NCBI GenBank assembly: GCA_050250375.1
Contig: JBFWOS010000001.1
Span: 1,150,361-1,214,360 of the forward strand
Reading direction: 5' to 3'
From: Candidatus Omnitrophota bacterium
Lineage (GTDB): Bacteria > Omnitrophota > Gorgyraeia > Zapsychrales > Zapsychraceae
DNA: 64,000 nt
A model generated the notes under the pieces. It was not told the origin of the DNA. It saw nothing but the letters and a program-made list of their open reading frames with translations, and did not search any database. The first letter of the stretch is position 1; each line of letters opens with the position of its first letter. The position numbers and the translations under genes were made by a program. Positions 6,688-33,104 of this stretch are shown in pieces.

Positions 6688-7416
6688 CTAATTTATTCCA
6701 CAGTTAAACGCAATTGTGGCGCACTCTTCCATCGGGGCCTCTTCACCCAGTTTCATAAACCCCAGCAATAGATCATCGCTGAAACCTGTCATCATGCCCT
6801 GCGGGAGAAATTTGAGAAAGAAACCGTTCTTTTTCTTAACCTTGAGGCCCGCCGCGGTGATGTCTTTTTCCATTGAGGAAACCGTATAAACTCTGCGGTG
6901 CCCCATCTGCTTGTCGGTTGAACCGATATCACTTATTTTTTTATGAAGATTCATTTTAACGGCGACACGGCGATGATAAGAGTTCGCATTTGGAACAATC
7001 ACAATCATCTGGCCTCCCGGCTTGATCCATGCCCTGGCCTTTTTCATAATATTGACCGGATTGTCAACATGCTCCAGAATAAACGAAGCAATGACAGAAT
7101 CAAATTTGACGGCCGGCTTGAAATCCTCGAACAAATTGTTAAATGTCGTAATTTTCTTGCCGTATTTATTTTTGGCCTGATTCAGCAAAATTTCTGATGC
7201 GTCGACAATAGAGGACTTCCCGAACTTCTTAATCACGCTTGTTGTCCAAGCATCATCTCCAAACCCCATTTCAAGCACGTCCGGTCCCTTGATCCAGGGC
7301 ATAATTTGGCCAACCACCATCGCCAGTATCTTGCGGTCAATGATACGGCCGGGATCAGTGTCGATATATTCACCCGCGATTTTTTCCAGCATATTTTTTT
7401 CTTTTTTAAGATCCAT
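6688..7416 (-). CDS. Class I SAM-dependent methyltransferase
   Basis: 242 aa. Motif I VLEMGFGDDAWTT, motif post-I, and a Methyltransf_11/23-like layout. Confidence 0.65.
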   Translation of the reverse strand: MDLKKEKNMLEKIAGEYIDTDPGRIIDRKILAMVVGQIMPWIKGPDVLEMGFGDDAWTTSVIKKFGKSSIVDASEILLNQAKNKYGKKITTFNNLFEDFKPAVKFDSVIASFILEHVDNPVNIMKKARAWIKPGGQMIVIVPNANSYHRRVAVKMNLHKKISDIGSTDKQMGHRRVYTVSSMEKDITAAGLKVKKKNGFFLKFLPQGMMTGFSDDLLLGFMKLGEEAPMEECATIAFNCGIN

Positions 7417-7433
7417 AATTTCCCTTTAAAAAA

Positions 7434-8351
7434 CTAATTCAGATCAACAATATTGTCAATCACATAAATCTTGTTCGGACGTACGGCTTCAAAAGTTCTC
7501 CATAAATATTCCCCGATAATCCCTAAAGCCATATTGGTTACGCCTAACCCGGTCAATAAAACGGCCAGAATCATCCTTTCAACGGAGATCCCGGCCACAC
7601 ACAGTATCTGGATGAAATAGAGAACGCCCGCGGCAAAAAAAACAAAACCGATAAGACTTATGCCCCGCACCGGCGCGTAAGAAAATGAAACAAATGAATC
7701 AATCATAAGTTTGATGTTTTTCCGCCAGGTCCATTTTGATTGCCCGGCCTGCCGTTCCAGCTTCCTGCCGGGAATAGCCGTCTGTTTAAATCCAAGGGAT
7801 ATCATCCGAAGTAAAATGGAAGAGTTCGACTCCGCGTGATCCTCCAACTCTTGGCGCACTTTTCGATGAAACATAACAATATCAAAACCATTAACCGGAT
7901 AGTCCGCGCAAACATAAGACCGCATCAAAGCCGCATAACCTTTCGAAAATACCCGTTTTAAAAACGGATCGCCAACAGAGTCCCGTTCCAGACGGACAAG
8001 GTCAAAACCCTCAAGACATTTACGATACAACTGGCCGACAATTTCCAGCGGATATTGCAAATCAGCCGCCAGATACGTCGTATAAAGGCCCCGGGAAGCG
8101 CGGATTCCGGCGAACAAGGCCGCATGCGAACCGAAATTCCTGGAAAACCTTATTATCCTAGCCGCATAAAATTTGTGTGAAGCTTGTTTGATCTTTTGAA
8201 AAGTCCCGTCCGTTGATCCGTCATCAATGAAGATAACTTCACATTTAACCGGATCCATTGTTTGCACATACCGGGTGATCTCAGCGATTAACCGTTCCAC
8301 ATTGTCTTCTTCATTGAAACAGGGAATTATTATTGTGATATCGTAATTCAT
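7434..8351 (-). CDS. Family-2 glycosyltransferase, polyprenyl-phosphate sugar transferase type (ArnC/GtrB/DPM1-like)
   Basis: 305 aa. N-terminal GT-A domain with IIIPCFNEEDNV and FIDDGSTDGT (DXD region). Two C-terminal TM helices, as in ArnC/GtrB. Confidence 0.85.
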   Translation of the reverse strand: MNYDITIIIPCFNEEDNVERLIAEITRYVQTMDPVKCEVIFIDDGSTDGTFQKIKQASHKFYAARIIRFSRNFGSHAALFAGIRASRGLYTTYLAADLQYPLEIVGQLYRKCLEGFDLVRLERDSVGDPFLKRVFSKGYAALMRSYVCADYPVNGFDIVMFHRKVRQELEDHAESNSSILLRMISLGFKQTAIPGRKLERQAGQSKWTWRKNIKLMIDSFVSFSYAPVRGISLIGFVFFAAGVLYFIQILCVAGISVERMILAVLLTGLGVTNMALGIIGEYLWRTFEAVRPNKIYVIDNIVDLN

Positions 8352-8361
8352 GGTAATCCTT

Positions 8362-8910
8362 TTATAATTCTTTCAAAGGGATGGAATGAAAGGGTCTATA
8401 TTTTCTTAGCACCTGGTCAAGACCTGCCGGATCAAACGTAAACCATGTTTCCTTTTGATCCTGCCGGGATATTTTCGAACCGAAAGACTTATGAAAATTG
8501 ATCACGTTCACATTCCCGTTTTGTACCCCAAAATATAATTCGTTCAACTGAAGTGTATTAAAAGCAAAATGGTACATCAGGACCGCTGATTCAAATGCGA
8601 CAAAGAATCCCGCCTTTTCCTGTATGACCCATCGACCCCATTCGGCGCGTTTTTTGGCAAAATCAATGTCATACACCGCAATCGTTCCATACAAACTACC
8701 GTCAGGACTTTCGATGATCAAATGATAGTCATTATCCGCTGCACGTTTTTTCTCAATCCAGTTTTCCTGATTTCCAAGGGACGGATCGGTTATTCCGATA
8801 AATCCGTTTAACCGCGGGTTGAGCCTCAATTCCAGAATGAAGGCCGCGTCTTTTTTATCGGCAGAACGCAGACAAACATTTCGCCCGTGGATTACTTCTT
8901 TTAAAATCAT
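8362..8910 (-). CDS. GNAT-family N-acyltransferase (putative)
   Basis: 182 aa. Pattern ...LYGTIAVYDIDFAKKRAEWGRWVI...NELYFGVQNGNVNVINFHKSFG resembles RimL/Acetyltransf_3 folds. Overlaps the ACP gene by 4 nt. Confidence 0.5.
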   Translation of the reverse strand: MILKEVIHGRNVCLRSADKKDAAFILELRLNPRLNGFIGITDPSLGNQENWIEKKRAADNDYHLIIESPDGSLYGTIAVYDIDFAKKRAEWGRWVIQEKAGFFVAFESAVLMYHFAFNTLQLNELYFGVQNGNVNVINFHKSFGSKISRQDQKETWFTFDPAGLDQVLRKYRPFHSIPLKEL

Positions 8911-9149
8911 ATTTTCCGAGCCGCAATTCCGTCAACGATATCCTTAACCGTCTTCATCCGGATAAGATCCTGCATATCGAAATTGGTTTTAAATTCCTGT
9001 TCAATTTTAAGAAACAAGTTCAATTGTTCCAGTGAATCAAAATGCTTGAGTTGCCCTATCTCCGTCTCCAAAGTCAATTTTCTTAAATCTTCTTTAAAAA
9101 CCGAAGCAACCAAACTCACTGTTTTCTGAATAATTTCATTCCGTTCCAT
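8907..9149 (-). CDS. Acyl carrier protein
   Basis: 80 aa. Phosphopantetheine attachment motif HFDSLEQLNLFL (DSL). Translationally coupled to the FkbH-like gene (shared base 9149). Confidence 0.8.
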   Translation of the reverse strand: MERNEIIQKTVSLVASVFKEDLRKLTLETEIGQLKHFDSLEQLNLFLKIEQEFKTNFDMQDLIRMKTVKDIVDGIAARKI

Positions 9150-10804
9150 CAGTGAACCACCATGGCGCTTAGTTTACGAAGCACCTTTTTAACCGACGCC
9201 CGGTAGTTCCCGGAATCTGTCTCTTCAAACCCGCATTTTGAATAAAATTTCTCAGCTGAAAGATTCTTTGCTGTCGGGACAAATTCAGCCCGGAGTTCAT
9301 CGATCCCGATTTGTACTAAATCCCCTAAAATCAACTCCATAAACTGAAATTCCACATTTCTTCCCAGAATCCGGCAGCTCAAAAGATATGTGTCCAGGAC
9401 GGCAGTATTATCCGCCTCATTTGTCACGATCGCTGCCCCGACGATCCCTTCGTCTCCGAATCTGTCCTTATATCTCAGACCATAAACAAACACCCGGCCG
9501 TTATTGACCAGCGATTCGATTTGATTGACCTGGTACCGTTTTGTCGTCAGATTAAACTGATTGGTTTTCTGCGTTAATTGTGAGATCCGCGCCAAATAGT
9601 CCTTTGGGTTTTTCAAAATCTCCAATTGAATATCCAGTGACTTTAAATATTCATTGATATCCAATTCTTTTGACAGATTTTCACGATTGATCATGTTCTT
9701 ATATTGGCGATCTTTGTCACGGTCTTCTTGTGTCAGTCTTGTCTTGCCAAAATAAGGGTAGATTACGGCATTAATCAGCCAATTTTTTAATGCGGCGGTA
9801 TTTCGTGGAAATTCGGGAACGGCAATATCCGGAAGGGCTTCCTTAATCATGAGTCTTTCCTGAGCCGAGTCGTCAATCATGACCATGGAATCCAATCCAA
9901 TATTTAATTCAGTCGCGATCTGCTGCAAATTCACCGGCTTGTTATCCCAGTTCACCTTGGTGATCACAAAATCTTGCCAGGTTAATACCATCATCCGGTT
10001 TTTTTCGAAAACTTCCCTTACATCTTTCTCATTATTTTTGGAATTAATAGCCAATAAAACGCCTTGTTCTTTCAACGACTTAATTGTTTTCTGAAAATCC
10101 CGGAACGCCTTTCCCGGGCCCTCTTCGGATAAATCAATACCTAGCGGCCCTTCTTCACCCACAATGCCGCCCCACAACACATTATCCAGATCGCAAACAA
10201 GGAGCTTGCGGGACTTCCCTTCGTAAGCGCGAATCAACTCGTTAAACTCATGGCAAATGGCGCTGAACCCGATCTCAGTATATTTTATCCGCCCCAGATA
10301 CCAATACTTCTCATCACAGAGCGACTCAAATCCAAACCGTTTGATGATCCGGTGAAAATTAAATACTAGAACATTTTGATGGGATTGAACAAAGTTGGAC
10401 AAAATGCGTCCGAGTTCGACTTCAATTTTGCTGAATGAATAATCTGAATTTAATTCTAAAAAATTAGTAATGGTTTGCGGAGGAAAAACCAAGCTGGATA
10501 AAATCATATTTCTGTCAGGATTTTTCTCCGCCCATTTTCCGGAAACACTGAGCAGCATGGTGAATGAATCAATAATTTTTTGTTCATCCGGGAAAGTATA
10601 AAAACCGTCCCGCAGAAACTCTTCAGCATCCAGATGCAGCCACACGTATCGGTATGCGCCGCGGTTAACACCGGATCCTTCATCCATCAGTTCCTGCATA
10701 AACTGGCCGTAAGGACAAAAATAAGGAACGCCGAGGCCGGCATCATCACAATGCGATTTGGCCGGTTCCATATTTACGTTGCTTAGGATAGCGATCTTAT
10801 TCAT
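9149..10804 (-). CDS. FkbH-like protein (HAD-superfamily phosphatase subfamily IIIC with C-terminal acyltransferase-like domain)
   Basis: 551 aa. HAD motif I plus FkbH signature LLVCDLDNVLWGGIVGEEGP...LLAINSKNNEKDV. Domain order matches FkbH/OzmB glyceryl-ACP loaders. Confidence 0.8.
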   Translation of the reverse strand: MNKIAILSNVNMEPAKSHCDDAGLGVPYFCPYGQFMQELMDEGSGVNRGAYRYVWLHLDAEEFLRDGFYTFPDEQKIIDSFTMLLSVSGKWAEKNPDRNMILSSLVFPPQTITNFLELNSDYSFSKIEVELGRILSNFVQSHQNVLVFNFHRIIKRFGFESLCDEKYWYLGRIKYTEIGFSAICHEFNELIRAYEGKSRKLLVCDLDNVLWGGIVGEEGPLGIDLSEEGPGKAFRDFQKTIKSLKEQGVLLAINSKNNEKDVREVFEKNRMMVLTWQDFVITKVNWDNKPVNLQQIATELNIGLDSMVMIDDSAQERLMIKEALPDIAVPEFPRNTAALKNWLINAVIYPYFGKTRLTQEDRDKDRQYKNMINRENLSKELDINEYLKSLDIQLEILKNPKDYLARISQLTQKTNQFNLTTKRYQVNQIESLVNNGRVFVYGLRYKDRFGDEGIVGAAIVTNEADNTAVLDTYLLSCRILGRNVEFQFMELILGDLVQIGIDELRAEFVPTAKNLSAEKFYSKCGFEETDSGNYRASVKKVLRKLSAMVVH

Positions 10805-11183
10805 GCCCCCCCTCGATCAACTCTATCAATCCGTAAGATACATATAAAAAAGCAACCCTCCGCATTCCGAACAGTTTAGCCGGTTTAGGCGGACTGACCA
10901 GAACCACATCTTTTGTTTTAAATTCTTTTATTTTTTTATCTAAGTCGGGGACTTCATAACACACATGTGCGTAACGGATCCCTTTATCGAGGAGACCATT
11001 GACCTTCGTGCCGGAAATTAGTTCAAGGTTAATATCATCATCAACGTTAATTAAACACACCTTCGCATCTTGGTGTTCATCATACAAAACCGGGCTTTCC
11101 TGGTTAACCTGGTGAATTTTCTTCAGTTCTTCCAGTTCAAAAGCAATATCCTTACAAATAATCCCAATATGGTGGAGTTTCAT
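10797..11183 (-). CDS. VOC-family (glyoxalase / methylmalonyl-CoA epimerase-like) protein
   Basis: About 128 aa from the internal start MKLHHIGIICKD... (a beta-alpha-beta-beta-beta module beginning HHIGI). The track ORF extends 11 codons further upstream. Confidence 0.55.
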   Translation of the reverse strand: MKLHHIGIICKDIAFELEELKKIHQVNQESPVLYDEHQDAKVCLINVDDDINLELISGTKVNGLLDKGIRYAHVCYEVPDLDKKIKEFKTKDVVLVSPPKPAKLFGMRRVAFLYVSYGLIELIEGGHE

Positions 11184-11200
11184 GAATGGATTCCTGAGAC

Positions 11201-12247
11201 TTAAATAATAGTACAAATAATTTCATTATTCAGTTTTAACTGATTTTCCAGAACGGCCTGGGCGGCCTTCAATCCGCCGGCCTGCAGACGGATCACCGGT
11301 TCATACCCGATGTCTGACGGAAGAATTCCCATGTGGCCGCTCTTAACATCCTGCGGAAAATACCTGATCCCTTCCCGGTCGAGCGCCCTTGTGTCGATAT
11401 CCCCGGCAAACCGCAGCAGAACGGCATTGGGAAACTGTTTCTTTACCTGATCCACCGGTATGACAGCGCGGTCAGAAATCCAGATCTGGTCAAACGGATA
11501 AGCCGTAAAAATAACCGCCTGGCAATTTTTGAATGAATCATCTTTTAAATCTTCCAACCGGTCAGTCAACCAAACCGCGCCGCCGTTATATTGAACCCGG
11601 TTACGCGGCGTGTCGATCACCCCCAGCCTGGCCCCCTGTTTGATCAATGTCCTGGCGATATACGGACCGAAATCGTTATTACACATTAATACAAATGTAT
11701 TATTTTCGACAGATAGCCCGGACCGGCGGATCAACTCCGCGGCCATCTCCCCAAGATATTCAAATACACCAACGGATGGGTGGCGTTCGTTGACCGCCGC
11801 CACGGGGATCTTCTGTTTTTGACAATAATCCAGATCCAGATCGTCATCGCGCAGTTCCCAGGCTTCGTACATTAATGCCACCACACAGCCCTTTTTGACA
11901 TGTTGGAGTTTATCCTGGTCCAAAGGCCGTAAATGACCGGAATTGGTAATGATATCCGCATGATGAATAACTTCAGCCGACAGCCATTCACTCAGACGGA
12001 CATGATCAAGATTGAACAATTTTAATTTCTGGTTCAATTCCGCAAAAATCTCAGACGTAGTCCCGTAGGATGTTGACCGCCCAACCGCATAGACCTCGGC
12101 TCCGGCCAAACCCGCAATTAACGGGGTCACGCAATATGGCCCGTTCGCCGCTTCCGTCAAGACAACTCGCCCGGACAGATCAAGGTTCAATTCTTGTATA
12201 GCTTTTTCAATGCTTTGTTTTAAATGCTGGTCATCCATGATGAACAT
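11201..12247 (-). CDS. Hypothetical protein, Rossmann-like (function unassigned)
   Basis: 348 aa. An alpha/beta region VVLTEAANGPYCVTPLIAGLAGAEVYAVGR suggests a nucleotide- or CoA-binding fold. No confident family assignment by eye. Confidence 0.35.
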   Translation of the reverse strand: MFIMDDQHLKQSIEKAIQELNLDLSGRVVLTEAANGPYCVTPLIAGLAGAEVYAVGRSTSYGTTSEIFAELNQKLKLFNLDHVRLSEWLSAEVIHHADIITNSGHLRPLDQDKLQHVKKGCVVALMYEAWELRDDDLDLDYCQKQKIPVAAVNERHPSVGVFEYLGEMAAELIRRSGLSVENNTFVLMCNNDFGPYIARTLIKQGARLGVIDTPRNRVQYNGGAVWLTDRLEDLKDDSFKNCQAVIFTAYPFDQIWISDRAVIPVDQVKKQFPNAVLLRFAGDIDTRALDREGIRYFPQDVKSGHMGILPSDIGYEPVIRLQAGGLKAAQAVLENQLKLNNEIICTII

Positions 12248-13484
12248 TAGAAACCGCCATTTTTAATTGCTCAATGATTAGTTCCATGCCTTTTTCCGAG
12301 AGGGTATGATAAACAGGCAAAATAATGACCTGGTCCCGCGCAGCCTCCGAGTCAGGCAATTGCCACATGGCATTCAGATAAGGTTGTTCCTGGTGTATAT
12401 TCATAATTCCCCGGCGGGTCGCGATATCATGGTCCATTAAATACTGCATAATTTCATCCCGGCTTCTGGGTGATGATTCGAGTATCCTGACGGGAAAACT
12501 TTGCCAATTTGTTTTACAATACGCCGGTTCTTCAGCCATCTTAAAACAACCGATATCGTTGAGTTTACTTTTATAGATTTCGACCATTTTTCTCCGCTGC
12601 TCAATAATCTTCGGCAATTTTTTAAGCTGTTCCAACCCGATGGCGGCCTGTATATCCGTCATCCGGTAATTAAAGGCGGTTGTTGTGTATTGTTCGAACT
12701 GGATTGTTTTAGATTCATGCCGCTGCACGTCAGACACATCCATCCCCTGGTGGCGTAAAAGCCTTAATTGACGGTCTAATTCAGGATTATTAGTCGTAAT
12801 CATACCCCCTTCCCCCGTCGTAATCACTTTGCGCGGATGGAAAGAAAAACAGGCCACATCCCCCCGGGGACGTCCAATCTTTTCAAACGTCAGACTGCCA
12901 TCGAAGGAAATCTCACTCCCGACAGCGCAGGCCGCATCTTCAACCACCGGAAGATTATATTTTTGAGCCAATGGAAGTATCTTGCCCAAATCACACGGCA
13001 TCCCCATCTGGTGGACCACAAGCAAGGCCGCGATCCGGCCGATATGCTGTTCAATATAATGAAAGGGGTTCTCCTCGCAGGACAATTGATGCACATTTTT
13101 AAAATATAGACCGTCAGGACGCTCCTCACATTCCGTCTGAAAAAACTCCTCTAACCGCTGTACCGACATGTTATAAGTATCCGGGGCAATATCTATAAAG
13201 ACCGGCTCTGCCGAACATTGTCTGACCGCGTTCGCCGTGGCAATAAACGAATGACTGACGGTAAGGACCACATCTCCGGGACTTACCCCGCACACTTTCA
13301 GAGCCAGATGCAAAGCCGTTGTGCAGTTCGACGTTGCGCAGGCATAGTCGGCTCCGACATATTGTTTGAAAGCATTCTCGAATTCGGCAACTTTAGGTCC
13401 CTGGGTGACCCAGCCGGACAAAATTACTTCCTGTACGGCCTTGACTTCCTCATCGGTTAAATATGGTTTGGCAACTGGAATCAT
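12231..13484 (-). CDS. DegT/DnrJ/EryC1/StrS-family sugar aminotransferase (PLP-dependent)
   Basis: 417 aa. Family hallmarks include the FHPRKVITTGEGGMITT lysine region and N-terminal VQEVILSGW. Confidence 0.9.
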   Translation of the reverse strand: MIPVAKPYLTDEEVKAVQEVILSGWVTQGPKVAEFENAFKQYVGADYACATSNCTTALHLALKVCGVSPGDVVLTVSHSFIATANAVRQCSAEPVFIDIAPDTYNMSVQRLEEFFQTECEERPDGLYFKNVHQLSCEENPFHYIEQHIGRIAALLVVHQMGMPCDLGKILPLAQKYNLPVVEDAACAVGSEISFDGSLTFEKIGRPRGDVACFSFHPRKVITTGEGGMITTNNPELDRQLRLLRHQGMDVSDVQRHESKTIQFEQYTTTAFNYRMTDIQAAIGLEQLKKLPKIIEQRRKMVEIYKSKLNDIGCFKMAEEPAYCKTNWQSFPVRILESSPRSRDEIMQYLMDHDIATRRGIMNIHQEQPYLNAMWQLPDSEAARDQVIILPVYHTLSEKGMELIIEQLKMAVSNVHHG

Positions 13485-14461
13485 GTTGTTATCGTTTGTG
13501 GTTGTTCATCGAGCCATTTCACCAGGCTTTTCAATCCGTCTTTCAAGGAAACTTTCGCCTGAAACCCAATCATCTGCCGGGCCTTGGTCACATCGGCCAG
13601 ACGACGCATCACTTCAACTTTATTCCGCTCTTCAGGCAACGGTATATATTTCGGTTTTAAATCAGAACCCATAACTTCAATCAACGTATAACAAAGCTCC
13701 TCAAGTGAGGTCTCTTCTCCACAAGCGATATTCAAGGCTTCATTGGTGACATCCGATTTAAGGGCCGCTATACCCGCACGGGCAATATCGCCCACATAAA
13801 TAAAATCCATCGTTTGTTTTCCGTCACCGTAAATCAACGGCTGTTTCCCTTCTTTGATCAAATTGTACCAACGGATCAAGACCTCCGTGTACTTTCCGTG
13901 CGTGTCCATGCGTGGTCCATAAATATTGAAAAAACGCAGGGCCAAAAAATCCAATCCGTACATGCTGTAAAACGACCGGCACATGAGCTCGTTGGCCATC
14001 TTGGCCGCCCCGTATAACGTGTAATTGTTATACGGGTGTTGTGTTTCCGGTGTAGGAAACTGGTCAGCCTGCCCATAAACAGATGCCGATGAAGCCAGAA
14101 CAATTTTCTTAACCTTATAATCGACGCACGCCTCCAGCACATTAAACGTTCCGTCATACATCGTAGACAATGCCTCCCGCGGTTCAGCGACACAATGTGT
14201 GATCCGAAGCGCGGCCAGATGAAAACAAAAATCAATATCGCTGAAGGCCTCAATGATCAGCGGCAGGTTACGGATGTCGCCTTTGATGAGATGGACCTTG
14301 CCCGTCCCGAGAGCTTCGCGGATATTTTTATCCGAACCACGAAAAAAATTATCAAGGACTACAATCTTCTCGACCTGTTCATTGAGCAACTGTTCAACGA
14401 TAAAAGATCCGACAAATCCGGCCCCTCCCGTAATCATGATTCGGCTGTTTTTAATATCCAT
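13481..14461 (-). CDS. NAD-dependent nucleotide-sugar epimerase/dehydratase (extended SDR)
   Basis: 326 aa. Rossmann motif ITGGAGFVGSFIV and the catalytic YGAAK (YxxxK). Confidence 0.85.
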   Translation of the reverse strand: MDIKNSRIMITGGAGFVGSFIVEQLLNEQVEKIVVLDNFFRGSDKNIREALGTGKVHLIKGDIRNLPLIIEAFSDIDFCFHLAALRITHCVAEPREALSTMYDGTFNVLEACVDYKVKKIVLASSASVYGQADQFPTPETQHPYNNYTLYGAAKMANELMCRSFYSMYGLDFLALRFFNIYGPRMDTHGKYTEVLIRWYNLIKEGKQPLIYGDGKQTMDFIYVGDIARAGIAALKSDVTNEALNIACGEETSLEELCYTLIEVMGSDLKPKYIPLPEERNKVEVMRRLADVTKARQMIGFQAKVSLKDGLKSLVKWLDEQPQTITT

Positions 14462-14466
14462 ACGAC

Positions 14467-15471
14467 TTAAATTTTAATAACCTTTCCCCCGTGTTTTAGG
14501 GATTTGTCCGTTGCTTCCAGCATCCGGACCACCCGTAACCCGGCGTGACCGTCATTGATGGGTGTTTGACGGTTTTCAATACATTGGACCATATGAATCA
14601 GTTCCTGTTTGAGTGCTTCGCTCTGGTCAACCCGAGGAGAACGCATGTCGCCAAGGCGGTAGTCAATTAAAGAACGATAAATTCCCTCTTTGGTGTCAAT
14701 ATCAACACCCTTATCATAAATCTTGATCTTTTCGTCCGTCTGTAGGTCGTCCCATACCAGCATCCGTTTGCTTCCACCGATCAGGGTGTTGCGAACTTTG
14801 ACCGGCGATAACCAATTAAAATTAAAATGCGCGATCAAATTGTCCTCAAAATACATCGTCACATAAGCGATGTTTTCAATCCCGCGGTCGAAATGATCAA
14901 TCCCTACCGCGCTGATTTTGTTAGGGGTTTTCTGGAGCAGAAAATCGAGGATTGAAAAATCATGGGGCGCCAGATCCCAAATCACATTGACATCCTGCTG
15001 GAACAACCCTAAGTTGACCCGGGTCGAATCATAATAATAAATGGCCCCCAGAGAATCATTCTTGATTTCTTCCTTGATCCGTTTGACTGCCCCGGTGAAT
15101 AAAAACGTGTGATCGACCATAATGGTCAGATTGTTTTTTTCCGCCAGGGTAATCAGTTCCTCGGCCTGTTTGACATTGAAGGTAAACGGCTTCTCCACAA
15201 AAATGTGTTTGCCGCTTTCCAAGGCCCGTTTAGCCAGCTGAAAATGAGTCGAAACAGGGGTCACGATCGCGGCAACATCAATATTCGGGTCCCTGAAAAT
15301 ATCTTCCGGGTCCGTCGTCACATCAATATTAGGATAGTTTTCCTGAACCCGTTTAAGGACTTTTGGGTTCAAATCGCAGACTGTCCTGACAGTCGTTTCC
15401 CTGATGGCCGTGAGGTTACGGACAATATTGGGCCCCCAGTACCCGTACCCGATGACACCGAAATTTAACAT
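14467..15471 (-). CDS. Gfo/Idh/MocA-family oxidoreductase (nucleotide-sugar dehydrogenase, WbpB-like)
   Basis: 334 aa. N-terminal NAD(P) motif MLNFGVIGYGYWGPNIVRNL plus the C-terminal Gfo/Idh/MocA alpha/beta domain. Confidence 0.85.
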   Translation of the reverse strand: MLNFGVIGYGYWGPNIVRNLTAIRETTVRTVCDLNPKVLKRVQENYPNIDVTTDPEDIFRDPNIDVAAIVTPVSTHFQLAKRALESGKHIFVEKPFTFNVKQAEELITLAEKNNLTIMVDHTFLFTGAVKRIKEEIKNDSLGAIYYYDSTRVNLGLFQQDVNVIWDLAPHDFSILDFLLQKTPNKISAVGIDHFDRGIENIAYVTMYFEDNLIAHFNFNWLSPVKVRNTLIGGSKRMLVWDDLQTDEKIKIYDKGVDIDTKEGIYRSLIDYRLGDMRSPRVDQSEALKQELIHMVQCIENRQTPINDGHAGLRVVRMLEATDKSLKHGGKVIKI

Positions 15472-15705
15472 AGGAAATAATTTTTTAAGGTCAGTCTATT
15501 CATAACAACTGTGATTGTTGATGATAATAAATATGGCATACGCCATTATACAATCAAACGTACCCACGGAAAAGATTGATCACGATTATTTTGATATCTA
15601 TTCCCTGTAGTCAGGATGTGAATAAATGGTTGTGAGATTGAACGGGACATTCCTGCGTGTTATACTACTGAAAATTTACACACACCTTCCAAAAAAGAAA
15701 ACGCA

Positions 15706-17304
15706 TTGGACCCAAAACGACATCTTCTATATTTTATCCTGGCCGGATTGTTCGGGATCGCCATTTTGACACCCCAGATTAATTTTCAGTCAGCCATATC
15801 CGTAGGCGACCACGGCCTCAATTATTACGCGTTCCAACGTATCGCAAATGGAGATCAACTCTACAAGGATTTCTGGTGGGGGTATGGACCGCTTTCTCCT
15901 TATTATTACGCCGCTTTCTATAAATTTTTCGGTGAAACCATGAGCAGTGTTTTATTAGGCCGCATGTTGCTGATTTATATTTCCGGATTGTTCTGTTATC
16001 TGACCGTCGCCTGTTTTTCTCCGCCTTTGTTAGCCCTGGCCGCATCCCTCTGGTTCTGGATCTATAATCCAGATTTCTTTTATGGATACAATCACACCGG
16101 GGCTTTTACTGTTTTCCTGGCCCTGACGTATTTTTTATTTTCCTATTACAAAACCGCCCGCCCGCGTTACATTGGTTATTCATTCATCGTCCTGTTTTTC
16201 CTGAATATGATCCGGATCAATATGGGACTAGCCCTTTTGACCGGATTGATCGTGACGGTGTTCATGACCGACAAATATGTTCACCGAAAAAATGAACAGC
16301 GCAATCTGGTCCGCAATCTGGCTTGCGGATTGGGCATATGTATCATCAGCGGGTTAATTTACTGGATCATGTTTTCGGGACTGCCGGCCTATGCGGTGAT
16401 GCAATGTATGCCGTATTTCAGCAAGGTGTACCACTCCGCGTCATCATCCATCAAATATTTCATGTATTTTAAGTTTCTGTATATGATCACCAGCCACTCC
16501 TGGCGTTATATCCTTACCTTCGGTGTGGTCGTAACAGCTATAATCCTGACGATCCGGGAACTGAAGAACCCTTCAACCGACAAGAAGATCAAAACCGACA
16601 TTCTATTTGCGCTCGGGACAATCTCCGGACTAATCGTACTCGTTTCACATGAATTTATCATGGGTTACCAGCTTTACCGCGTCAACTGGACCATTCCGTA
16701 CCAGATGGTATTGTTTTGTTTAACGATCGGATTTGCCGTCAGAAAATATACCCCCAACATCCGTTACGCCGTGATCCTGTTTATCCTGTTTGTGGCCTTG
16801 TTTGATTCCTTCCGTTACCTGAATCGCGTTGACAAATTAAAAGCACCCGGCCAGATGATCCTCGTAGAAAACGCGCAGATCTTTGTTGGCAATCAGCCGG
16901 AATGGATCAGGACAGTCGAACAAACAACATATTATCTGGACTCTATTCTGGAAGATGATGAAACATTTTTTGCCCTGCCCTATGAACCGCTTTATTATTA
17001 TCTCACCCACCGTAAGTCACCCACTTGGCACGTGCTGATGATGGTGGGCAGTGAATTGAATGATATTCAGGAACAGCAAATGATCGAAACTCTAAAAAAC
17101 AAAAAGATCAGGTATGTTCTGTTATCTAACCGCTATCGATCAAAGGAATTGGATATGGGCGAATTGGGGGTTACTCATTTGAAGGAATTAGCTAAATACA
17201 TCAACGACCATTTTCAGACAGAAGCGACGTTCGGGTTTTGGGACGCTGACCCGGGCTGGAACTTCAACCATGGGCTGAAGATCTTGAAAAGAATTGAACC
17301 TTAA
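15706..17304 (+). CDS. Polytopic membrane protein, GT-C-like (putative lipid-linked-sugar transferase; ArnT/PMT-like topology)
   Basis: 532 aa. About 11 predicted TM helices in the first ~380 aa, then a soluble C-terminal domain. Divergently transcribed from the sugar-modification cluster. Confidence 0.45.
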   Translation: MDPKRHLLYFILAGLFGIAILTPQINFQSAISVGDHGLNYYAFQRIANGDQLYKDFWWGYGPLSPYYYAAFYKFFGETMSSVLLGRMLLIYISGLFCYLTVACFSPPLLALAASLWFWIYNPDFFYGYNHTGAFTVFLALTYFLFSYYKTARPRYIGYSFIVLFFLNMIRINMGLALLTGLIVTVFMTDKYVHRKNEQRNLVRNLACGLGICIISGLIYWIMFSGLPAYAVMQCMPYFSKVYHSASSSIKYFMYFKFLYMITSHSWRYILTFGVVVTAIILTIRELKNPSTDKKIKTDILFALGTISGLIVLVSHEFIMGYQLYRVNWTIPYQMVLFCLTIGFAVRKYTPNIRYAVILFILFVALFDSFRYLNRVDKLKAPGQMILVENAQIFVGNQPEWIRTVEQTTYYLDSILEDDETFFALPYEPLYYYLTHRKSPTWHVLMMVGSELNDIQEQQMIETLKNKKIRYVLLSNRYRSKELDMGELGVTHLKELAKYINDHFQTEATFGFWDADPGWNFNHGLKILKRIEP

Positions 17305-17516: not shown

Positions 17517-17593
17517 TGGTGGGCGATGGAGGAATCGAACCCCCGACCCTCTGAATGTAAGTCAGATGCTCTAACCAACTGAGCTAATCGCCC
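17517..17593 (-). tRNA. tRNA-Val (anticodon UAC), CCA encoded
   Basis: Minus-strand sequence GGGCGATTAGCTCAGTTGGTTAGAGCATCTGACTTACATTCAGAGGGTCGGGGGTTCGATTCCTCCATCGCCCACCA folds into a canonical cloverleaf by hand. The overlapping track ORF 17339..17578 is spurious. Confidence 0.9.
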
Positions 17594-17680: not shown

Positions 17681-17995
17681 TTACCAGATCCGTTCACTGT
17701 CGGAACACCATAACTCAGAGACCTCATTGGTCGCCAAATCTATCGTGCCGTGAATCTCATCTGTATACTTGACGGCATACCGGGTGTTATTGAACCGGAA
17801 CATATGTTTATTTCCGGATGGGTAAACTCCTCCAAATACCTCTTTCAATGCATCCAGCGTAATCGGCTGGCTTAACTGAAGGCAGGCTGCATGCATTTCT
17901 TCAATCTCGTTCGGTCCGGAGAATTTCTCTGAAGCGAACTTAAAGCCAAACACAACCAATCCAATAACGACAATTAATATTAAAATTTTATCCAC
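17681..17995 (-). CDS. Small membrane-anchored hypothetical protein
   Basis: 104 aa. N-terminal TM helix ILILIVVIGLVVFGF. No recognisable domain. Confidence 0.35.
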   Translation of the reverse strand: MDKILILIVVIGLVVFGFKFASEKFSGPNEIEEMHAACLQLSQPITLDALKEVFGGVYPSGNKHMFRFNNTRYAVKYTDEIHGTIDLATNEVSELWCSDSERIW

Positions 17996-18204: not shown

Positions 18205-21200
18205 TTAATCAATATCCACAGCAATATAACCAACCGTTTCACTGACATGTTGACCGTCACTGCCTTCTTCTTCCTGCAGTTTAACATCAAAACTACCGGT
18301 GGATACGTTCTTCTGCCGGGTCACCACCGCCCCGCCTTCATTATACGTCTGGCATTGGGTGATCGTGGCCGGGGGCGTGCTGTATGAGTTAGTATACGAC
18401 ACATTCTGCCATTCATCGTCCACACTTTCGGTGCCGACTTCCGCTTGTAATCCGCTCGACAAGGCATGTGTTCCTTCTTCCAAAACAACATAGTCAATTT
18501 TTTCGATCATGTGTTTCTGGTTAAGATAATCCCATTCTTCGATCTGGAACTGGAAGGAGTCGCTGCCGATATTGCGCAGACGAATATGCGACGGCTGCCG
18601 TCCGTGGAAGGTGACAATCTGCATGAAGACCACCGGATTGGTATAACTATTCTTCAGCTGAATCGTGTGCCATTGGCTGCCCTTCTTCTGATACGCCGAT
18701 ATTTCGCCGGCTTCACCAACAACCGCTCCTGAAGAATTGGTGATCGTCCCGGGTTCAACCGCGAAATAACTGACCACTTCGGTAGTGTGATTCGTTTCCG
18801 GGTCTTCCGATCTTTCCTCTTCAATCTTGACCGTAAACCGGCTTCGATTGACTTGTTTGATTCGAAGCCCGGCCGTATCCATGCCGTTGAATGTTTCAAT
18901 TCCGGCAATCATGACCGGTTTACGTTTAAAGCAAAGATCGAAATCGACTTTATACCACTTCTTGGTCACCGCATCAGGTGTGCGCCCGGCCGTCGCCGGC
19001 TGGGTGACGACGCGTGACTGGATATAATAATCACTCAGCATGTTTACCAGCGTCACGTTCGGTTCGTGATAGAAACGGGTGTCGTACTTGGCGAACTTGG
19101 CTTCCAGTTCGGCGGCGCTGTCAGTCCCTACGTCCGGCCCTGTTTCTTCGTCATAATTCATATGGGTCTGCAGCCCCCACTGTTCTCTCGGTTTATGATG
19201 TTTGTACGACCAAACCGTCCAGCTCCAGTCCAGGTCATTGAATGTTTTGGCGTACAAGTCCCAGATTTCACGGTAATTGAACCCGTTAAACTCGCCGATC
19301 AGGACCGGCACATTATAGTCATCTTGTTTTGAAAACTCGACTTTTCCGCAAAATAGTTCATCGTTACCGATACTATCGCAGTCCGGGTCGTCCCCGCTGA
19401 CGAGGTAATCGTCCTGCAGATCGACGTCTAGGACACCGTCGATTTTGCCCTGCGCGTTAAACTTGAACCCGTAATAATGGAATTGGTAAACGACGTTGCT
19501 CCATGAATACGTATCCGGATCGGGCAATGTATCCCAATCTTTGTCGCTGGGGATCGCCTCCATGACGATGATGTGTTTGTTATCAATCGCACGGATAGCG
19601 TCATATAACTGGTCATATAAAGACCACAGTGCTTCCAAACCGTCTTCCCTATCCGGATAATAATAGGAATCGACGGCTCCGAACGGTTCGTTCAGCAGAT
19701 CGTAGCCCATCACTGTCGTGTTATTTTTATAGTATTCCGCCATCGCCTCCCAAAGTTCTTTGGTCCTCTGGCGGTAGGTGCTGTTGTTGGGATCAAATAA
19801 TTGGTGATAGTATCCCTGGCTAGGCGTTTCGGCGGAAATACGGCCGGAGTGAAACTCTTTACTTTGATGTCCGGGCGCGCCGTGCAAGTCGAGCAGCACA
19901 TAGATCCCGCGGTCTTCACACATCTGCACAATACGGTCGATTTGTGAAAAATCAAAACTACTGCCCGCAGCCCACTGGCCGTTGCTTTCATCGATTTCAC
20001 GGACCGCCCTGTAGTAAATCGGCAGCCGGACCAGATTGGCGCCGCTGCGCATAATAGTATCCAGGTCATATTCGGTGAGGTAAGAATCCTGATAGGCTTC
20101 CAGTAGTTCTTTGGCCTGCGTTGCGCCGAAACGGTCCGTTAATTCGGTACGGATACTCCAGTCGTCGGTGACAGTTGTCCCGTCCACCGTGAATCCGGTC
20201 ATCCACGCTTCGATCAATAGGTAATTTCCCAAATTGACCCCGCTAAGGATGATCGGATCGCCGTTGCCGTCCTGTTCCTTAATGATTTTATTCACCGCTT
20301 TAAGATAGCCGGCATTCGGTGTATACGAACGCTGCGGACTCCAGTCGCTGGTATCGGTAACCATACTGTTTTCTTCAACCAGCGCCCTGACCCGGTACCA
20401 TTTGCCGTTGGTCGCCGTCAACGTTGTGTGCGCGCCGTTGTGGATCTGTTCCCATGGCCCGTTTTTATTAGATGATTTCTCCACCTGATACTTGTCGGCC
20501 TGTGCCAAATTGGTCCAGGCCACTGTTCCTGAAGCCAAAGTGGATTTGTCGATCAGGACCGGTGACGGTTCGTACTTGACGACATCGCTCCAGTCAGATT
20601 TATAGGCGATCGGATTGTCATCTTCATCAACAGCCTCTTCCCAGCGCACACGCAGCCAGGCCGGAGAAACACGGTTCAATGAATAACTGGTGTTTGAACC
20701 ATGATATAGTTCTTCCCACGGTCCGAACGCCCCGCCCGTGCTTTGTTCGAGAGTATACAGCTGGGCGCCGCTGACCGCGTTCCATTCGACATCGCCGCCA
20801 GCCAGCGCGACCACATCTATCTGGGGCACAGATTTTGAAATACGGATGTCGTCGTAAAAATAGGAACCTCTCCAATATTGCTGAAACTGCAGCTTATTCA
20901 TATTATTCAGTTCAAAGTCTGATGGAAAACTGTCCAGCGGCACGCTGAATTTGGTCCATTGCCCGAACACGGCCGGTTTTTTCGGCCAGATCACATACGG
21001 ATTGCCGACCGGTTCGTTTGGATAGTTGTTATAGTCAAATGCCTGGAAACCCAGGTCGTTATCCATCCCGTTTTCCGGCAGGGCATACACCCAGAACGTG
21101 ATGCGGTCATACGGGGATTCCTCCGGAGCTCCGGGCCCGCTTGTTCCATCGAGGTCCACATACCATTCCGACTGGTAATAACCGCCAAAGGCGGCCAGAT

Positions 21201-32778: not shown

Positions 32779-32797
32779 GATTTACAGGGATTAAAAA

Positions 32798-32874
32798 CGC
32801 TCCCGATAGGATTTGAACCTATAACCTACTATCATGGATAGCGATGCGCTTTAACCAGTTAAGTCTACGGGAGC
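32798..32874 (-). tRNA. tRNA-like gene with CAT anticodon context (Met or Ile2 candidate). Atypical anticodon/D arms, no encoded CCA.
   Basis: Perfect 7-bp acceptor stem GCTCCCG/CGGGAGC. Canonical T-arm ATAGG-TTCAAAT-CCTAT. A CAT triplet lies at the centre of CTATC-CAT-GATAG. No canonical 5-bp anticodon stem with a 7-nt loop or D-stem could be drawn by hand. An extended -10 (TGATAGAAT) sits upstream. Confidence 0.6.
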
Positions 32875-32929
32875 ATGAGGTATTCTATCACACTTAAATT
32901 CCAAGAAACAGCATGATATAAATTCATGG

Positions 32930-33027: not shown

Positions 33028-33104
33028 TGGCGGGGTTGACGAGACTTGAACTCGCGGCCTCCGCCGTGACAGGGCGGCGTTCTAACCAACTGAACTACAA
33101 CCCC
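33028..33104 (-). tRNA. tRNA-Asp (anticodon GUC), CCA encoded
   Basis: GGGGTTGTAGTTCAGTTGGTTAGAACGCCGCCCTGTCACGGCGGAGGCCGCGAGTTCAAGTCTCGTCAACCCCGCCA gives a canonical cloverleaf. The overlapping track ORF 32949..33131 is spurious. Confidence 0.9.

Follow-up and report, generated by a model that had tools for sequence, protein, structure and literature searches.

An Omnitrophota gene cluster with Arn-like logic and a candidate FkbH/ACP route to an N-acylated, lipid-linked amino sugar

What might be made by a run of genes that sets an FkbH-like enzyme and a stand-alone acyl carrier protein (ACP) among enzymes of nucleotide-sugar and polyprenyl-phosphate glycosyl metabolism? Such a run lies in the 64-kb stretch of DNA analysed here (the window), which comes from an uncultivated Omnitrophota bacterium and in which ten ORFs, all on the minus strand, run from 15471 to 6688 just as originally predicted, with gaps or overlaps of -17 to +17 nt between them. 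Pfam and NCBIfam assignments agree with the domains that had been claimed for the ten genes, and the expected families TIGR01686, PF00550, PF01041, PF01408 and PF00535 were each found in the operon; all the checks by computation that had been suggested for the prediction turned out in its favour. The reading that we favour, with moderate confidence, is that the cluster builds an amino sugar, gives it a three-carbon N-acyl group drawn from glycolysis by way of FkbH and the ACP, moves it to a lipid carrier and attaches it at the surface through a GT-C enzyme, following an Arn-like logic; we infer the sugar, the acyl group and the acceptor, glyceroyl being our best guess for the acyl.

The ten genes and a divergent membrane-protein gene form an 11-gene unit seen again in four further assemblies, where FkbH is 50-68% identical, so the grouping is not a matter of chance; the flanks upstream of the unit vary among the assemblies that carry it. 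Between the operon and the divergent gene lies an AT-rich region of 234 bp (15472-15705), read from the sequence as presumably holding putative promoters for both; a promoter scan of this region scored no better than shuffled sequence. The methyltransferase gene (6688-7416) is, as predicted, the last of the listed genes, but a scan found no terminator between it and the downstream csaA-like, yjbQ, pabB and pabC genes, so the 3' end of the operon is not fixed, and neither scan gives backing for its boundaries. No flippase, phosphopantetheinyl transferase or deacylase is encoded within the window.

The first three products were originally described as the classic trio for a nucleotide-linked amino sugar, an account that holds at the level of families and frays at the level of chemistry. 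The Gfo/Idh/MocA oxidoreductase (14467-15471, 334 aa, PF01408) has as its top NCBIfam model the archaeal UDP-GlcNAc 3-dehydrogenase (162 bits over the full length, below the 450 cut-off) and matches PDB entry 7bvj (E 4e-16); from sequence it probably acts on a nucleotide sugar, as a dehydrogenase akin to UDP-GlcNAc 3-dehydrogenase. Its orthologues (340-430 bits) stand in Gfo-LbH-DegT rows at loci L061, L087 and L088 and beside a DegT at L089, and in relatives the usual neighbours of the gene are an LbH acetyltransferase and another DegT, neither of which is present in the Omnitrophota operon. Without these usual partners the role of Gfo is hard to place, which we count against the pathway. The extended SDR (13481-14461, 326 aa, assigned by Pfam) has as top PDB matches 6dnt (2e-54, deposited as an 'NAD-dependent epimerase/dehydratase'), the UDP-glucose 4-epimerase 4zrm and WbpP. 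Its active site is of epimerase type, S-A-S-V-Y-G with Y-G-A-A-K, where E. coli ArnA reads S-T-S-E-V-Y-G; it is 27.6% identical to the ArnA C-terminal domain, and in the motif comparison with E. coli ArnA the dehydratase/decarboxylase Glu is absent, a further point against the pathway, which has to supply the aminotransferase with a keto substrate. That aminotransferase, a 417-aa DegT-family PLP enzyme (12231-13484; PF01041, 336 bits), matches the NCBIfam models PseC (303 bits), LegC (288) and ArnB (231), each below its equivalog cut-off, and, in the PDB, perosamine synthetase (1e-55) and ArnB (2e-49); PseC, LegC and ArnB we take to aminate C4. It is the orthologue of the SDR-adjacent DegT of related clusters (340-490 bits); orthology to the DegT that adjoins Gfo and LbH was considered and ruled out at only 100-150 bits.

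The fourth protein, U348 (11201-12247, 348 aa), had been called an unassigned Rossmann protein, and it does lack a match in Pfam, NCBIfam and PDB sequences. It has 1632 homologues, which share about 50% identity even between phyla and are every one labelled 'hypothetical'. An AF2 model (pLDDT 95.6) predicts two Rossmann-like domains and resembles formate and D-2-hydroxyacid dehydrogenases, SAH hydrolase and DpaA (TMq 0.38-0.58, 11-18% identity), with a non-canonical glycine-rich motif, C-N-N-D-F-G-P. We therefore treat U348 as a core member of the cluster family with two predicted Rossmann-like domains. Judged from their families, Gfo, SDR, U348 and DegT would together make a UDP-amino sugar; the starting UDP-sugar is probably a HexNAc, and DegT, nearest to 4-aminotransferases, would install the amine.

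Comparison across genomes places the locus in a wider setting. Gfo, U348, SDR, DegT and the GT2 glycosyltransferase make up a core of five genes that occurs in Bacteroidota, Ignavibacteria, Gammaproteobacteria and Omnitrophota, with strong orthologues in four other lineages, and the Omnitrophota cluster is one recurrent variant of this widespread gene cluster, a family of which we found no description in the literature searched. Anchoring a survey on U348, we asked what occupies the position after it in 71 informative metagenome loci: 39 carry an ArnA-type formyltransferase, 16 the GNAT/VOC/FkbH/ACP cassette, eight a FemAB-type enzyme and three an LbH protein. The genes next to this slot in related clusters are those for a GT2 like ArnC, a small membrane protein of TMEM234 type and a GT-C resembling PMT_2/ArnT; in Pontibacter ummariensis the formyltransferase, GT2, TMEM234, SDR, DegT and PMT_2 genes are consecutive. 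That the slot mostly holds an ArnA-type formyltransferase independently backs the Arn-like logic first proposed, and the range of its contents (formyltransferase, FkbH cassette, FemAB-type enzyme) leads us to see an Arn-like system whose N-acylation step, here the FkbH cassette, would be interchangeable.

The enzyme that defines this variant, the 551-aa FkbH-like protein (9149-10804), exceeds the TIGR01686 cut-off of 146.65 with 278.9 bits and also matches TIGR01681 (62.9 bits). It comprises an FkbH_N-type N-terminal domain, a HAD-IIIC phosphatase and a C-terminal GNAT-like transferase, and in the PDB it matches the uncharacterised BF1531 (3slr, 2e-41). The residues on which its function would turn are in place: the HAD motif I Asp is present (D205-L-D207-N-V), and motif I (D205-x-D207), motifs II-IV (S255-K256, K289, D311-D312) and the C-terminal acyltransferase motifs K-T-N-Q (K413-T-x-Q-F-N418) and S476-C477-R478 are invariant across 27 homologues, and the FkbH homologue encoded in the zwittermicin cluster has all of these motifs too, the Ser-Cys-Arg cysteine included. 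The adjoining ACP (8907-9149, 80 aa; PF00550, 27.8 bits) carries a DSL phosphopantetheine site, and 49 of 51 FkbH-adjacent ACPs have retained the Ser of this site. In 40 of 80 genome loci the gene that immediately follows the FkbH homologue codes for an ACP, and FkbH/ACP pairs elsewhere frequently adjoin NeuB, cytidylyltransferase and GNAT genes. The polyketide enzyme OzmB converts 1,3-bisphosphoglycerate (1,3-BPG) to phosphoglyceryl-S-enzyme, glyceryl-S-enzyme and finally glyceryl-ACP (PMC9057759, PMC7489565). By this precedent the window FkbH would form a phosphoglyceryl thioester on Cys477, dephosphorylate it with its HAD domain and hand the glyceryl to the ACP; the glyceryl unit is thus an extrapolation from aligned polyketide-type FkbH proteins of actinomycetes and Bacillus that are 25-28% identical and have no N-terminal domain.

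Two further proteins would complete acylation. The VOC/glyoxalase-fold metalloprotein (10797-11183, 128 aa as called in the source assembly, in an ORF reaching 11216; Glyoxalase_4, PF13669, 47 bits) weakly matches methylmalonyl-CoA epimerase and, at about 1e-12, PDB entries 2qh0 and 3hdp. Its H/E/H/E metal ligands are intact and are kept in 19-20 of 20 FkbH-adjacent VOCs. Of 80 genome loci, 13 have a VOC gene as the immediate upstream neighbour of FkbH, as do at least 12 of the 16 U348 loci of FkbH type. Enzymes of this superfamily are able to take a proton from the alpha carbon of a thioester, permitting elimination or isomerisation, and the window VOC may epimerise or isomerise a 2-hydroxyacyl thioester on the ACP. 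The GNAT N-acyltransferase (8362-8910, 182 aa; Acetyltransf_3, PF13302, 51 bits) matches FdhC best among PDB entries (5kta, E 2e-22, residues 11-162), the other hits being N-acetyltransferases for spermidine or diamines with E values no better than 1e-6, and scores 39 bits, below cut-off, against the PseH model. FdhC is, we take it, a GNAT nucleotide-sugar N-(3-hydroxybutanoyl)transferase of Acinetobacter nosocomialis, and its window relative would acylate the sugar amine with the group carried by the ACP. The class I SAM-dependent methyltransferase (242 aa; PF13489, 55 bits), with top PDB match 2p7h, a hypothetical protein (9e-28), has its closest homologue among the surveyed loci (120 bits) in an FkbH locus of Parabacteroides sp. 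(L050); it may O-methylate the acyl group or the sugar at some step.

The same architecture might instead serve an FkbH_N-bearing glycan FkbH that loads something other than glycerate, for example lactoyl, pyruvoyl or, after VOC action, a 3-hydroxyacyl group, a reading that we consider unlikely though deserving of weight. Besides the low identity to polyketide-type FkbH proteins, the intact VOC and its alpha-carbon chemistry, and the 3-hydroxybutanoyl donor presumably taken by FdhC, the genes for KAS III, ketoreductase (KR) and MaoC dehydratase that neighbour other FkbH loci mean that the ACP-bound acyl may be non-glycerate or further elaborated. KAS III, KR and dehydratase are, however, all absent from the window operon, and the invariant HAD phosphatase motifs make sense only if the acyl donor is phosphorylated, as 1,3-BPG is; glyceroyl amides, moreover, are known in organisms with FkbH-type genes (PMC7099621, PMC3068675).

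A second alternative, to which we give little credence, casts the acyl group as a transient handle for the GT2, taken off either ahead of transfer or following it to display a sugar with a free amine. Its precedent is the Arn pathway, where ArnD (arnD is annotated in E. coli) removes the formyl group of Ara4FN, and the cassette does share its slot with an ArnA-type formyltransferase; yet an ArnD/NodB-type deacylase or other amidase was found neither in the window cluster nor in those related clusters that were inspected, five cassette genes, one of them for a methyltransferase, would be a costly outlay for a disposable group, and glyceroyl amides are retained in mature glycans of other bacteria (PMC3068675). 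That FkbH, ACP and VOC instead make a separate polyketide or lipid building block beside the sugar genes by accident is highly improbable: the mechanistically described FkbH enzymes that we found do come, without exception, from pathways to polyketides or non-ribosomal peptides (PMC9057759, PMC7489565), but the window has no PKS, NRPS or KAS gene, five contigs from Omnitrophota and 16 independent loci from metagenomes have the cassette amid sugar genes and in every case at the N-acyltransferase slot, and the GNAT is far closer to FdhC than to any other solved structure.

In the favoured reading, a retained N-acyl amino sugar is next passed to lipid. The GT2 (7434-8351, 305 aa; PF00535, 84 bits) is a polyprenyl-phosphate glycosyltransferase like ArnC, GtrB and PgfS, matching PgfS (147 bits) and ArnC (116 bits) over its full length, below the NCBIfam equivalog cut-offs, and GtrB (5ekp, 5e-37) and ArnC (9bhc, 1e-30) across residues 4-302; the C-terminal TM helices foreseen for it are two, at residues 234-252 and 261-279. 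A GT-C delivery enzyme was likewise foreseen, and one of that fold exists, lying outside the predicted span as the divergent gene at 15706-17304 on the plus strand. Its 532-aa product has at least eight hydrophobic segments and, after them, a soluble C-terminal domain of some 165 aa, belongs to a family of 792 representatives and has in Pfam only a sub-threshold PMT_2 match (E 0.014). All Foldseek PDB matches of its AF2 model (pLDDT 93.2) at E <= 0.1 are GT-C enzymes, among them STT3, AglB, DPY19, ArnT (5ezm), PglB, Pmt4, AftA and Emb; across 36 homologues its G-D-H-G motif shows no change at G34 and D35 and next to none at H36, and the gene adjoins the operon also in L002, L003 and L005. At the level of fold and family, the GT2 would put the N-acyl amino sugar on undecaprenyl phosphate, a flippase outside the identified genes of the cluster would turn it over, and we propose from the model that the GT-C protein is the final transferase from lipid-linked sugar to periplasmic acceptor.

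How, then, does the cluster compare with known systems? The Arn pathway of E. coli and Salmonella (ArnB, ArnC, ArnA, ArnD, ArnT and ArnE/F), which serves lipid A 4-amino-4-deoxy-L-arabinose, likewise has a DegT-made UDP-amino sugar, N-acylation, transfer to undecaprenyl phosphate by a GT2 with two C-terminal TM helices and GT-C delivery beyond the cytoplasm, and the related clusters share its ArnA-N-type formyltransferase and PMT_2 GT-C; the window DegT is 30% identical to E. coli ArnB and the GT2 27% to ArnC, and the GT-C model fits ArnT at TMq 0.58. Unlike Arn, the Omnitrophota cluster has FkbH, ACP, VOC and GNAT in place of the formyltransferase, with Gfo, U348 and a methyltransferase in addition. 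The label 'Arn-like' thus stands for working logic and falls for family membership, which we rejected because the SDR has no decarboxylase motif and no formyltransferase, ArnD deformylase or ArnE/F flippase was found for the cluster.

With the FkbH, OzmB and ZmaN proteins of methoxymalonyl-ACP, hydroxymalonyl-ACP and tetronate pathways, the window FkbH shares the HAD-IIIC and C-terminal transferase domains, the invariant D-x-D, S-K, K, D-D, (K/R)-T-N-Q and S-C-R residues, a TIGR01686 score above cut-off and a dedicated stand-alone ACP immediately after it; it differs in its additional N-terminal domain of about 190 aa and in having as partners a GNAT and sugar enzymes, not FkbK/FkbI-type dehydrogenases, FabH-like tetronate synthases or PKS modules. 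FdhC is the closest solved relative of the GNAT and presumably likewise acylates a nucleotide-linked amino sugar with a hydroxyacyl group, but its donor we take to be acyl-CoA, whereas the gene context here points to acyl-ACP. The GtrA/GtrB/Gtr(type), PgfS and CsbB/YfhO systems also pair a GtrB-like GT2 with a GT-C-fold transferase, but use plain UDP-Glc or UDP-GlcNAc where the Omnitrophota cluster, for which no GtrA-type flippase was found, adds a tailoring and acylation pathway. In Campylobacter jejuni we take cj1298 to encode a GNAT, cj1299 an ACP and cj1300 a SAM methyltransferase. The fkbH-domain gene cj1302 adjoins cj1301, annotated 'epimerase', in the glycosylation locus of NCTC 11168 (PMC7099621), and the flagellin of strain 11168 bears 5-N-(2,3-di-O-methylglyceroyl)-pseudaminic acid (PMC3068675). 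The literature searched yielded no statement linking cj1302 to this modification, which its sub-locus probably supplies; the C. jejuni system thus offers an O-methylated glyceroyl amide on an amino sugar and an fkbH-domain gene in a glycosylation locus, as in our proposal, but there a CMP-activated nonulosonic acid is transferred to flagellin in the cytoplasm, without a polyprenyl-phosphate/GT-C route.

All ten genes of the cluster in the original prediction are recovered, with their domains: ten minus-strand ORFs run head to tail from 15471 to 6688, with intergenic gaps or overlaps of -17 to +17 nt. Pfam and NCBIfam profile searches assign their products, in transcription order, to a Gfo/Idh/MocA oxidoreductase (14467-15471), an extended SDR (13481-14461), a DegT aminotransferase (12231-13484), a 348-aa protein matching no family in either collection (11201-12247), a Glyoxalase_4 (VOC) protein (10797-11216), an FkbH protein (9149-10804), an 80-aa ACP whose gene overlaps the FkbH stop codon (8907-9149), an Acetyltransf_3 GNAT (8362-8910), a GT2 glycosyltransferase (7434-8351) and a SAM methyltransferase (6688-7416). 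Upstream and divergent, on the plus strand, 15706-17304 encodes a polytopic membrane protein of 532 aa. The identical eleven-gene set recurs, in the same order, in four other assemblies, whose FkbH proteins are 50-68% identical to that of the window.

Past the membrane-protein gene, the flanking DNA is different in each of these four assemblies, which suggests a recombination boundary on that side of the cluster. A tRNA-Val gene (17517-17593, minus strand) lies immediately past the 3' end of the membrane-protein gene, and the neighbours on this side are a cellulase in the window and a response regulator, a GGDEF protein and an ORF6N protein in the related assemblies. The cellulase domain, of family GH5, belongs to a 1273-aa protein (18205-22026, minus strand) that adjoins the cluster only in the window assembly and matches the H-type lectin domain below threshold (24.4 bits, E = 3e-5), with none of the separate aligned segments passing. 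The gene at 22171-24141 (minus strand) encodes a protein of 656 aa with a caspase-like protease domain of the CHAT type. Elsewhere in the window, tRNA-Asp is predicted twice within a short distance (32797-32875 and 33028-33104, both minus strand, separated by 150 nt), one copy with the normal anticodon GTC and the other with ATC, which is unusual for bacteria. On its 3' side the cluster is followed by housekeeping genes (a tRNA-binding CsaA-like protein, YjbQ, PabB and PabC). Promoter and terminator scans gave counts no different from those of shuffled sequence, and are therefore uninformative on the limits of the operon.

The strongest support for an Arn-like reading of this cluster comes from its relatives, in which the position after the 348-aa protein is a slot with varying contents. 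With the 348-aa protein as anchor, we surveyed 80 metagenome loci, of which nine lacked data and 71 were informative; the canonical gene order runs Gfo, LbH, DegT1, 348-aa protein, slot, GT2, TMEM234, SDR, DegT2. The slot holds a formyltransferase in 39 loci, a GNAT/VOC/FkbH/ACP cassette in 16, a FemAB-type enzyme in eight, an LbH protein in three and other genes in five. On these counts, the FkbH cassette recurs as an exchangeable substitute for the Arn-type formyltransferase. The original prediction named relatives lacking the FkbH-ACP pair, with an unchanged glycan, as one ground for refutation. Clusters without the pair do exist, but in them another N-acyltransferase occupies the same place; the acyl group thus appears to be swapped between clusters rather than dispensed with.

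Individual clusters illustrate the range. That of Pontibacter ummariensis reads Gfo, LbH, DegT, 348-aa protein, ArnA-type formyltransferase, GT2, TMEM234, SDR, DegT, PMT_2; Sinobacterium caligoides has a FemAB-type enzyme and a methyltransferase in place of the formyltransferase; an Ignavibacteria MAG has two formyltransferases and an Acetyltransf_6 protein; and in a Bacteroidota MAG (L061) the slot is filled by a methyltransferase, a MaoC-KR protein, FkbH, an ACP and a GNAT. Each member of the five-gene core—Gfo, 348-aa protein, SDR, DegT and GT2—has a strong orthologue in L061, L088 and L089 (234-387 bits), and the Sinobacterium matches are weaker for SDR (145 bits) and GT2 (136 bits).

The window's own cassette carries the residues on which its proposed chemistry depends. 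The FkbH protein lies above the curated cut-offs (TIGR01686, 278.9 bits against 146.65; TIGR01681, 62.9 against 35.75) and has an extra N-terminal domain, of the Pfam FkbH_N type known from homologues. The original prediction was also exposed at the aspartate of HAD motif I, the C-terminal acyltransferase residues and the serine context of the ACP, and it holds at all three: HAD motifs I-IV (D205-L-D207-N-V, S255-K256, K289 and D311-D312) are kept in 27 of 27 aligned FkbH homologues, the C-terminal K413-T-x-Q-F-N418 and S476-C477-R478-x-x-G are invariant in the same alignment, and the ACP has the serine of its phosphopantetheine site in a D-S-L context. A homologue from the zwittermicin cluster of a Bacillus thuringiensis plasmid, presumably ZmaN, has all of the listed FkbH motifs at 25% identity; the only solved relative, BF1531 (3slr), is uncharacterised. 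In the related OzmB, 1,3-bisphosphoglycerate is converted by way of phosphoglyceryl-S-enzyme and glyceryl-S-enzyme to glyceryl-ACP (PMC9057759; see also PMC7489565), and we infer that Cys477, in the C-terminal transferase domain, would be the nucleophile forming the (phospho)glyceryl thioester.

Across 80 genome loci gathered with the FkbH alignment, an ACP gene directly follows that of FkbH in 40, 49 of the 51 ACPs retain the phosphopantetheine serine, and in 13 the gene immediately upstream of FkbH encodes a VOC protein whose H/E/H/E ligands are intact. The best solved relative of the window GNAT is FdhC (5kta, E = 2e-22), which we take to be a GNAT that adds a 3-hydroxybutanoyl group to the amine of a dTDP-amino sugar; against the PseH model (TIGR03585) the window GNAT scores 39.4 bits, below the equivalog cut-off of 93.1. 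In a Promethearchaeota MAG (L048, 11252-11488), the ACP beside an FkbH homologue has D-A-M rather than D-S-(L/M) at its phosphopantetheine site, and FkbH/ACP pairs occur in several other archaeal MAGs as well. On a Streptomyces goshikiensis plasmid, the gene for a 713-aa FkbH fusion protein (L091, 4936-7077) has as neighbours two ATP-grasp genes, a GNAT gene and one resembling UDP-glucuronate decarboxylase, apparently a further association of FkbH with sugars outside polyketide clusters.

On the sugar side, the Gfo protein scores 162 bits, below the equivalog cut-off of 450, against the model for the archaeal UDP-GlcNAc 3-dehydrogenase (NF040723), an enzyme of the WlbA/WbpB/GnnA type. Its orthologues elsewhere stand in Gfo-LbH-DegT rows; LbH and that second DegT are missing from the window, so the window clade has kept Gfo but lost its usual successors, the LbH/DegT1 pair. 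The SDR has the active-site motif S-A-S-V-Y-G, and among PDB structures it is closest to 6dnt (deposited as 'epimerase/dehydratase'), to 4zrm, a UDP-glucose 4-epimerase, and to WbpP; on motif and relatives we reject an enzyme of the ArnA or dTDP-glucose type. A single cluster, that of Sinobacterium caligoides (L087, 7774-8778), has instead the dehydratase/decarboxylase-type motif S-S-E-V-Y-G, and the sugar product may accordingly differ between lineages. The nearest relatives of the DegT protein are PseC, LegC, perosamine synthase and ArnB, aminotransferases that act at C4. In three formyltransferase-type metagenome clusters (L118, L121 and L131), a second, distantly related Gfo/Idh/MocA gene stands right after the SDR-DegT pair, a hint that the second amination might also need a Gfo-type dehydrogenase.

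The remaining core member, the 348-aa protein, matches no sequence in Pfam, NCBIfam or PDB, yet it belongs to a family of 1632 homologues, about 50% identical across phyla and every one annotated 'hypothetical', that always lies within the same sugar cluster (the window; loci L087-L089 and L092-L171; homologues P0121-P0240). The original prediction had called it an unassigned Rossmann protein, and its predicted structure (pLDDT 95.6) indeed has two Rossmann-like domains, with a non-canonical glycine-rich nucleotide-binding motif and a fold resembling formate and D-2-hydroxyacid dehydrogenases, SAH hydrolase and DpaA (TM-scores 0.38-0.58, identity 11-18%). The likeness to D-2-hydroxyacid dehydrogenases raised the idea of an enzyme acting on glycerate, which we reject as the main reading because the protein is as conserved in formyltransferase clusters without FkbH; the same conservation argues that it is part of the sugar branch rather than the acyl branch.

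Two proteins probably act at the lipid carrier. The GT2 (PF00535, 84 bits) aligns over its full length with GtrB (5ekp, E = 5e-37, residues 4-301) and with the ArnC structure (E = 1e-30); with two TM helices (234-252 and 261-279) C-terminal to its catalytic domain, it fits the GtrB-like family of polyprenyl-phosphate glycosyltransferases. The GT-C enzyme proposed to deliver the sugar is represented by the divergent gene 15706-17304: all Foldseek matches of its predicted structure (pLDDT 93.2) at E <= 0.1 are GT-C glycosyltransferases (STT3, AglB, DPY19, ArnT, PglB, Pmt4, AftA and Emb), and we infer a catalytic role for Asp D35, invariant within a G-D-H-G motif in the first external loop. Its family comprises about 800 cluster representatives and has no Pfam model, the PMT_2 profile matching only at E = 0.014. 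Compared pairwise with the large membrane proteins encoded in other clusters (DUF6044 and PMT_2 among them), it shows no significant similarity; the final transferase thus appears to vary between lineages, related clusters using unrelated proteins. A second GT-C-type protein, of 618 aa and with a PMT_2 domain (E = 3e-8), is encoded 13 kb from the cluster (30031-31887, minus strand). Searches across the whole window turned up no further DegT and no LbH acetyltransferase, nor any formyltransferase, TMEM234 flippase or counterpart of the membrane proteins of related clusters. A 104-aa gene considered as a flippase candidate (17681-17995) was rejected because its product has a single TM segment and matches no family.

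Taken together, these assignments outline a pathway in which the GT2 step is based on family membership, the GT-C step on fold and all other steps on inference. Gfo, SDR and the 348-aa protein would tailor a UDP-HexNAc-type sugar, which DegT would then aminate; FkbH would load a glyceryl unit from 1,3-bisphosphoglycerate onto the ACP, where the VOC enzyme may epimerise it, and from there the GNAT would acylate the amine of the sugar. The methyltransferase would act at some stage, the GT2 would make the undecaprenyl-phosphate-linked sugar, a flippase would carry it across the membrane and the GT-C enzyme would join it to its acceptor. We consider this architecture probable and glycerate as the acyl unit an even call, so that the explanation as a whole comes out slightly favoured. 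Within the limits of a computational analysis, the interpretation first put forward is supported.

The FkbH/ACP pairs of the genome survey often lie beside NeuB, CMP-sugar synthetase, PseG-like and GNAT genes; KAS III, ketoreductase, MaoC and AcpS genes are likewise common neighbours. N-glyceroyl and methylated glyceroyl groups decorate pathogen surface sugars: the flagellin of C. jejuni 11168 bears 5-N-(2,3-di-O-methylglyceroyl)-pseudaminic acid (PMC3068675), and for the Pse5Am7Gra of Tannerella forsythia a 2017 paper calls the genetic basis of the N-glyceroyl group something that 'remains a major challenge' (PMC5378307). Within the open-access literature searched, we found no paper assigning FkbH to sugar N-acylation; the papers found on FkbH deal with polyketides, apart from a single passing mention of cj1302 that connects FkbH with a glycan locus.

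A broader reading, which we offer tentatively and hold somewhat short of even, is that the core and its swappable N-acylation slot constitute a widespread, undescribed amino-sugar pathway operating through a lipid carrier, with the 348-aa protein a new family of nucleotide-sugar-modifying enzymes and FkbH/ACP/VOC/GNAT the general, as yet unassigned means by which bacterial amino sugars acquire N-glyceroyl and O-methyl-glyceroyl groups. If so, the sugar would be an unusual one, di- or tri-amino in most relatives, and the cassette route would also serve pseudaminic acids in Tannerella forsythia and in Campylobacter jejuni. The cluster provides a small, self-contained set of genes in which glyceroyl-type sugar N-acylation can be tested, and it shows the FkbH cassette standing in directly for the ArnA formyltransferase of a lipid-carrier pathway. 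The survey also brings out two large families without a Pfam model, that of the 348-aa protein (>1600 homologues) and that of the GT-C protein. The pathway spans several phyla, and two cultivated species among its carriers open it to direct study.

The cluster contradicts no existing concept: it most likely encodes a lipid-carrier glycosylation system of Arn/Gtr type, within a widespread cluster family that we did not find described in the open literature searched. We compared the window proteins with those of the E. coli arn operon. The ArnA decarboxylase domain has the motif S-T-S-E-V-Y-G, with the catalytic T-S-E, whereas the window SDR, 27.6% identical, does not; a homologue of the N-terminal formyltransferase of ArnA is absent from the 64-kb window but present in 39 of 71 related clusters. 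BLASTP of ArnD, ArnE and ArnF against the cluster proteins found nothing, the remaining cluster genes holding other Pfam assignments, and a tblastn search of the whole window with TMEM234, which is present in related clusters, was likewise empty. ArnT has no BLASTP match to the GT-C protein at E <= 1e-3, and the latter has no significant Pfam match; ArnT is among the structural matches of the GT-C protein (TMq 0.56-0.58), but STT3 and AglB score better. The DegT protein is 30% identical to ArnB, a likeness at family level only (NF008658, 231 bits against an equivalog cut-off of 631), and the GT2, 27% identical to ArnC, shares its architecture without being its orthologue (NF007986, 116 bits against 529).
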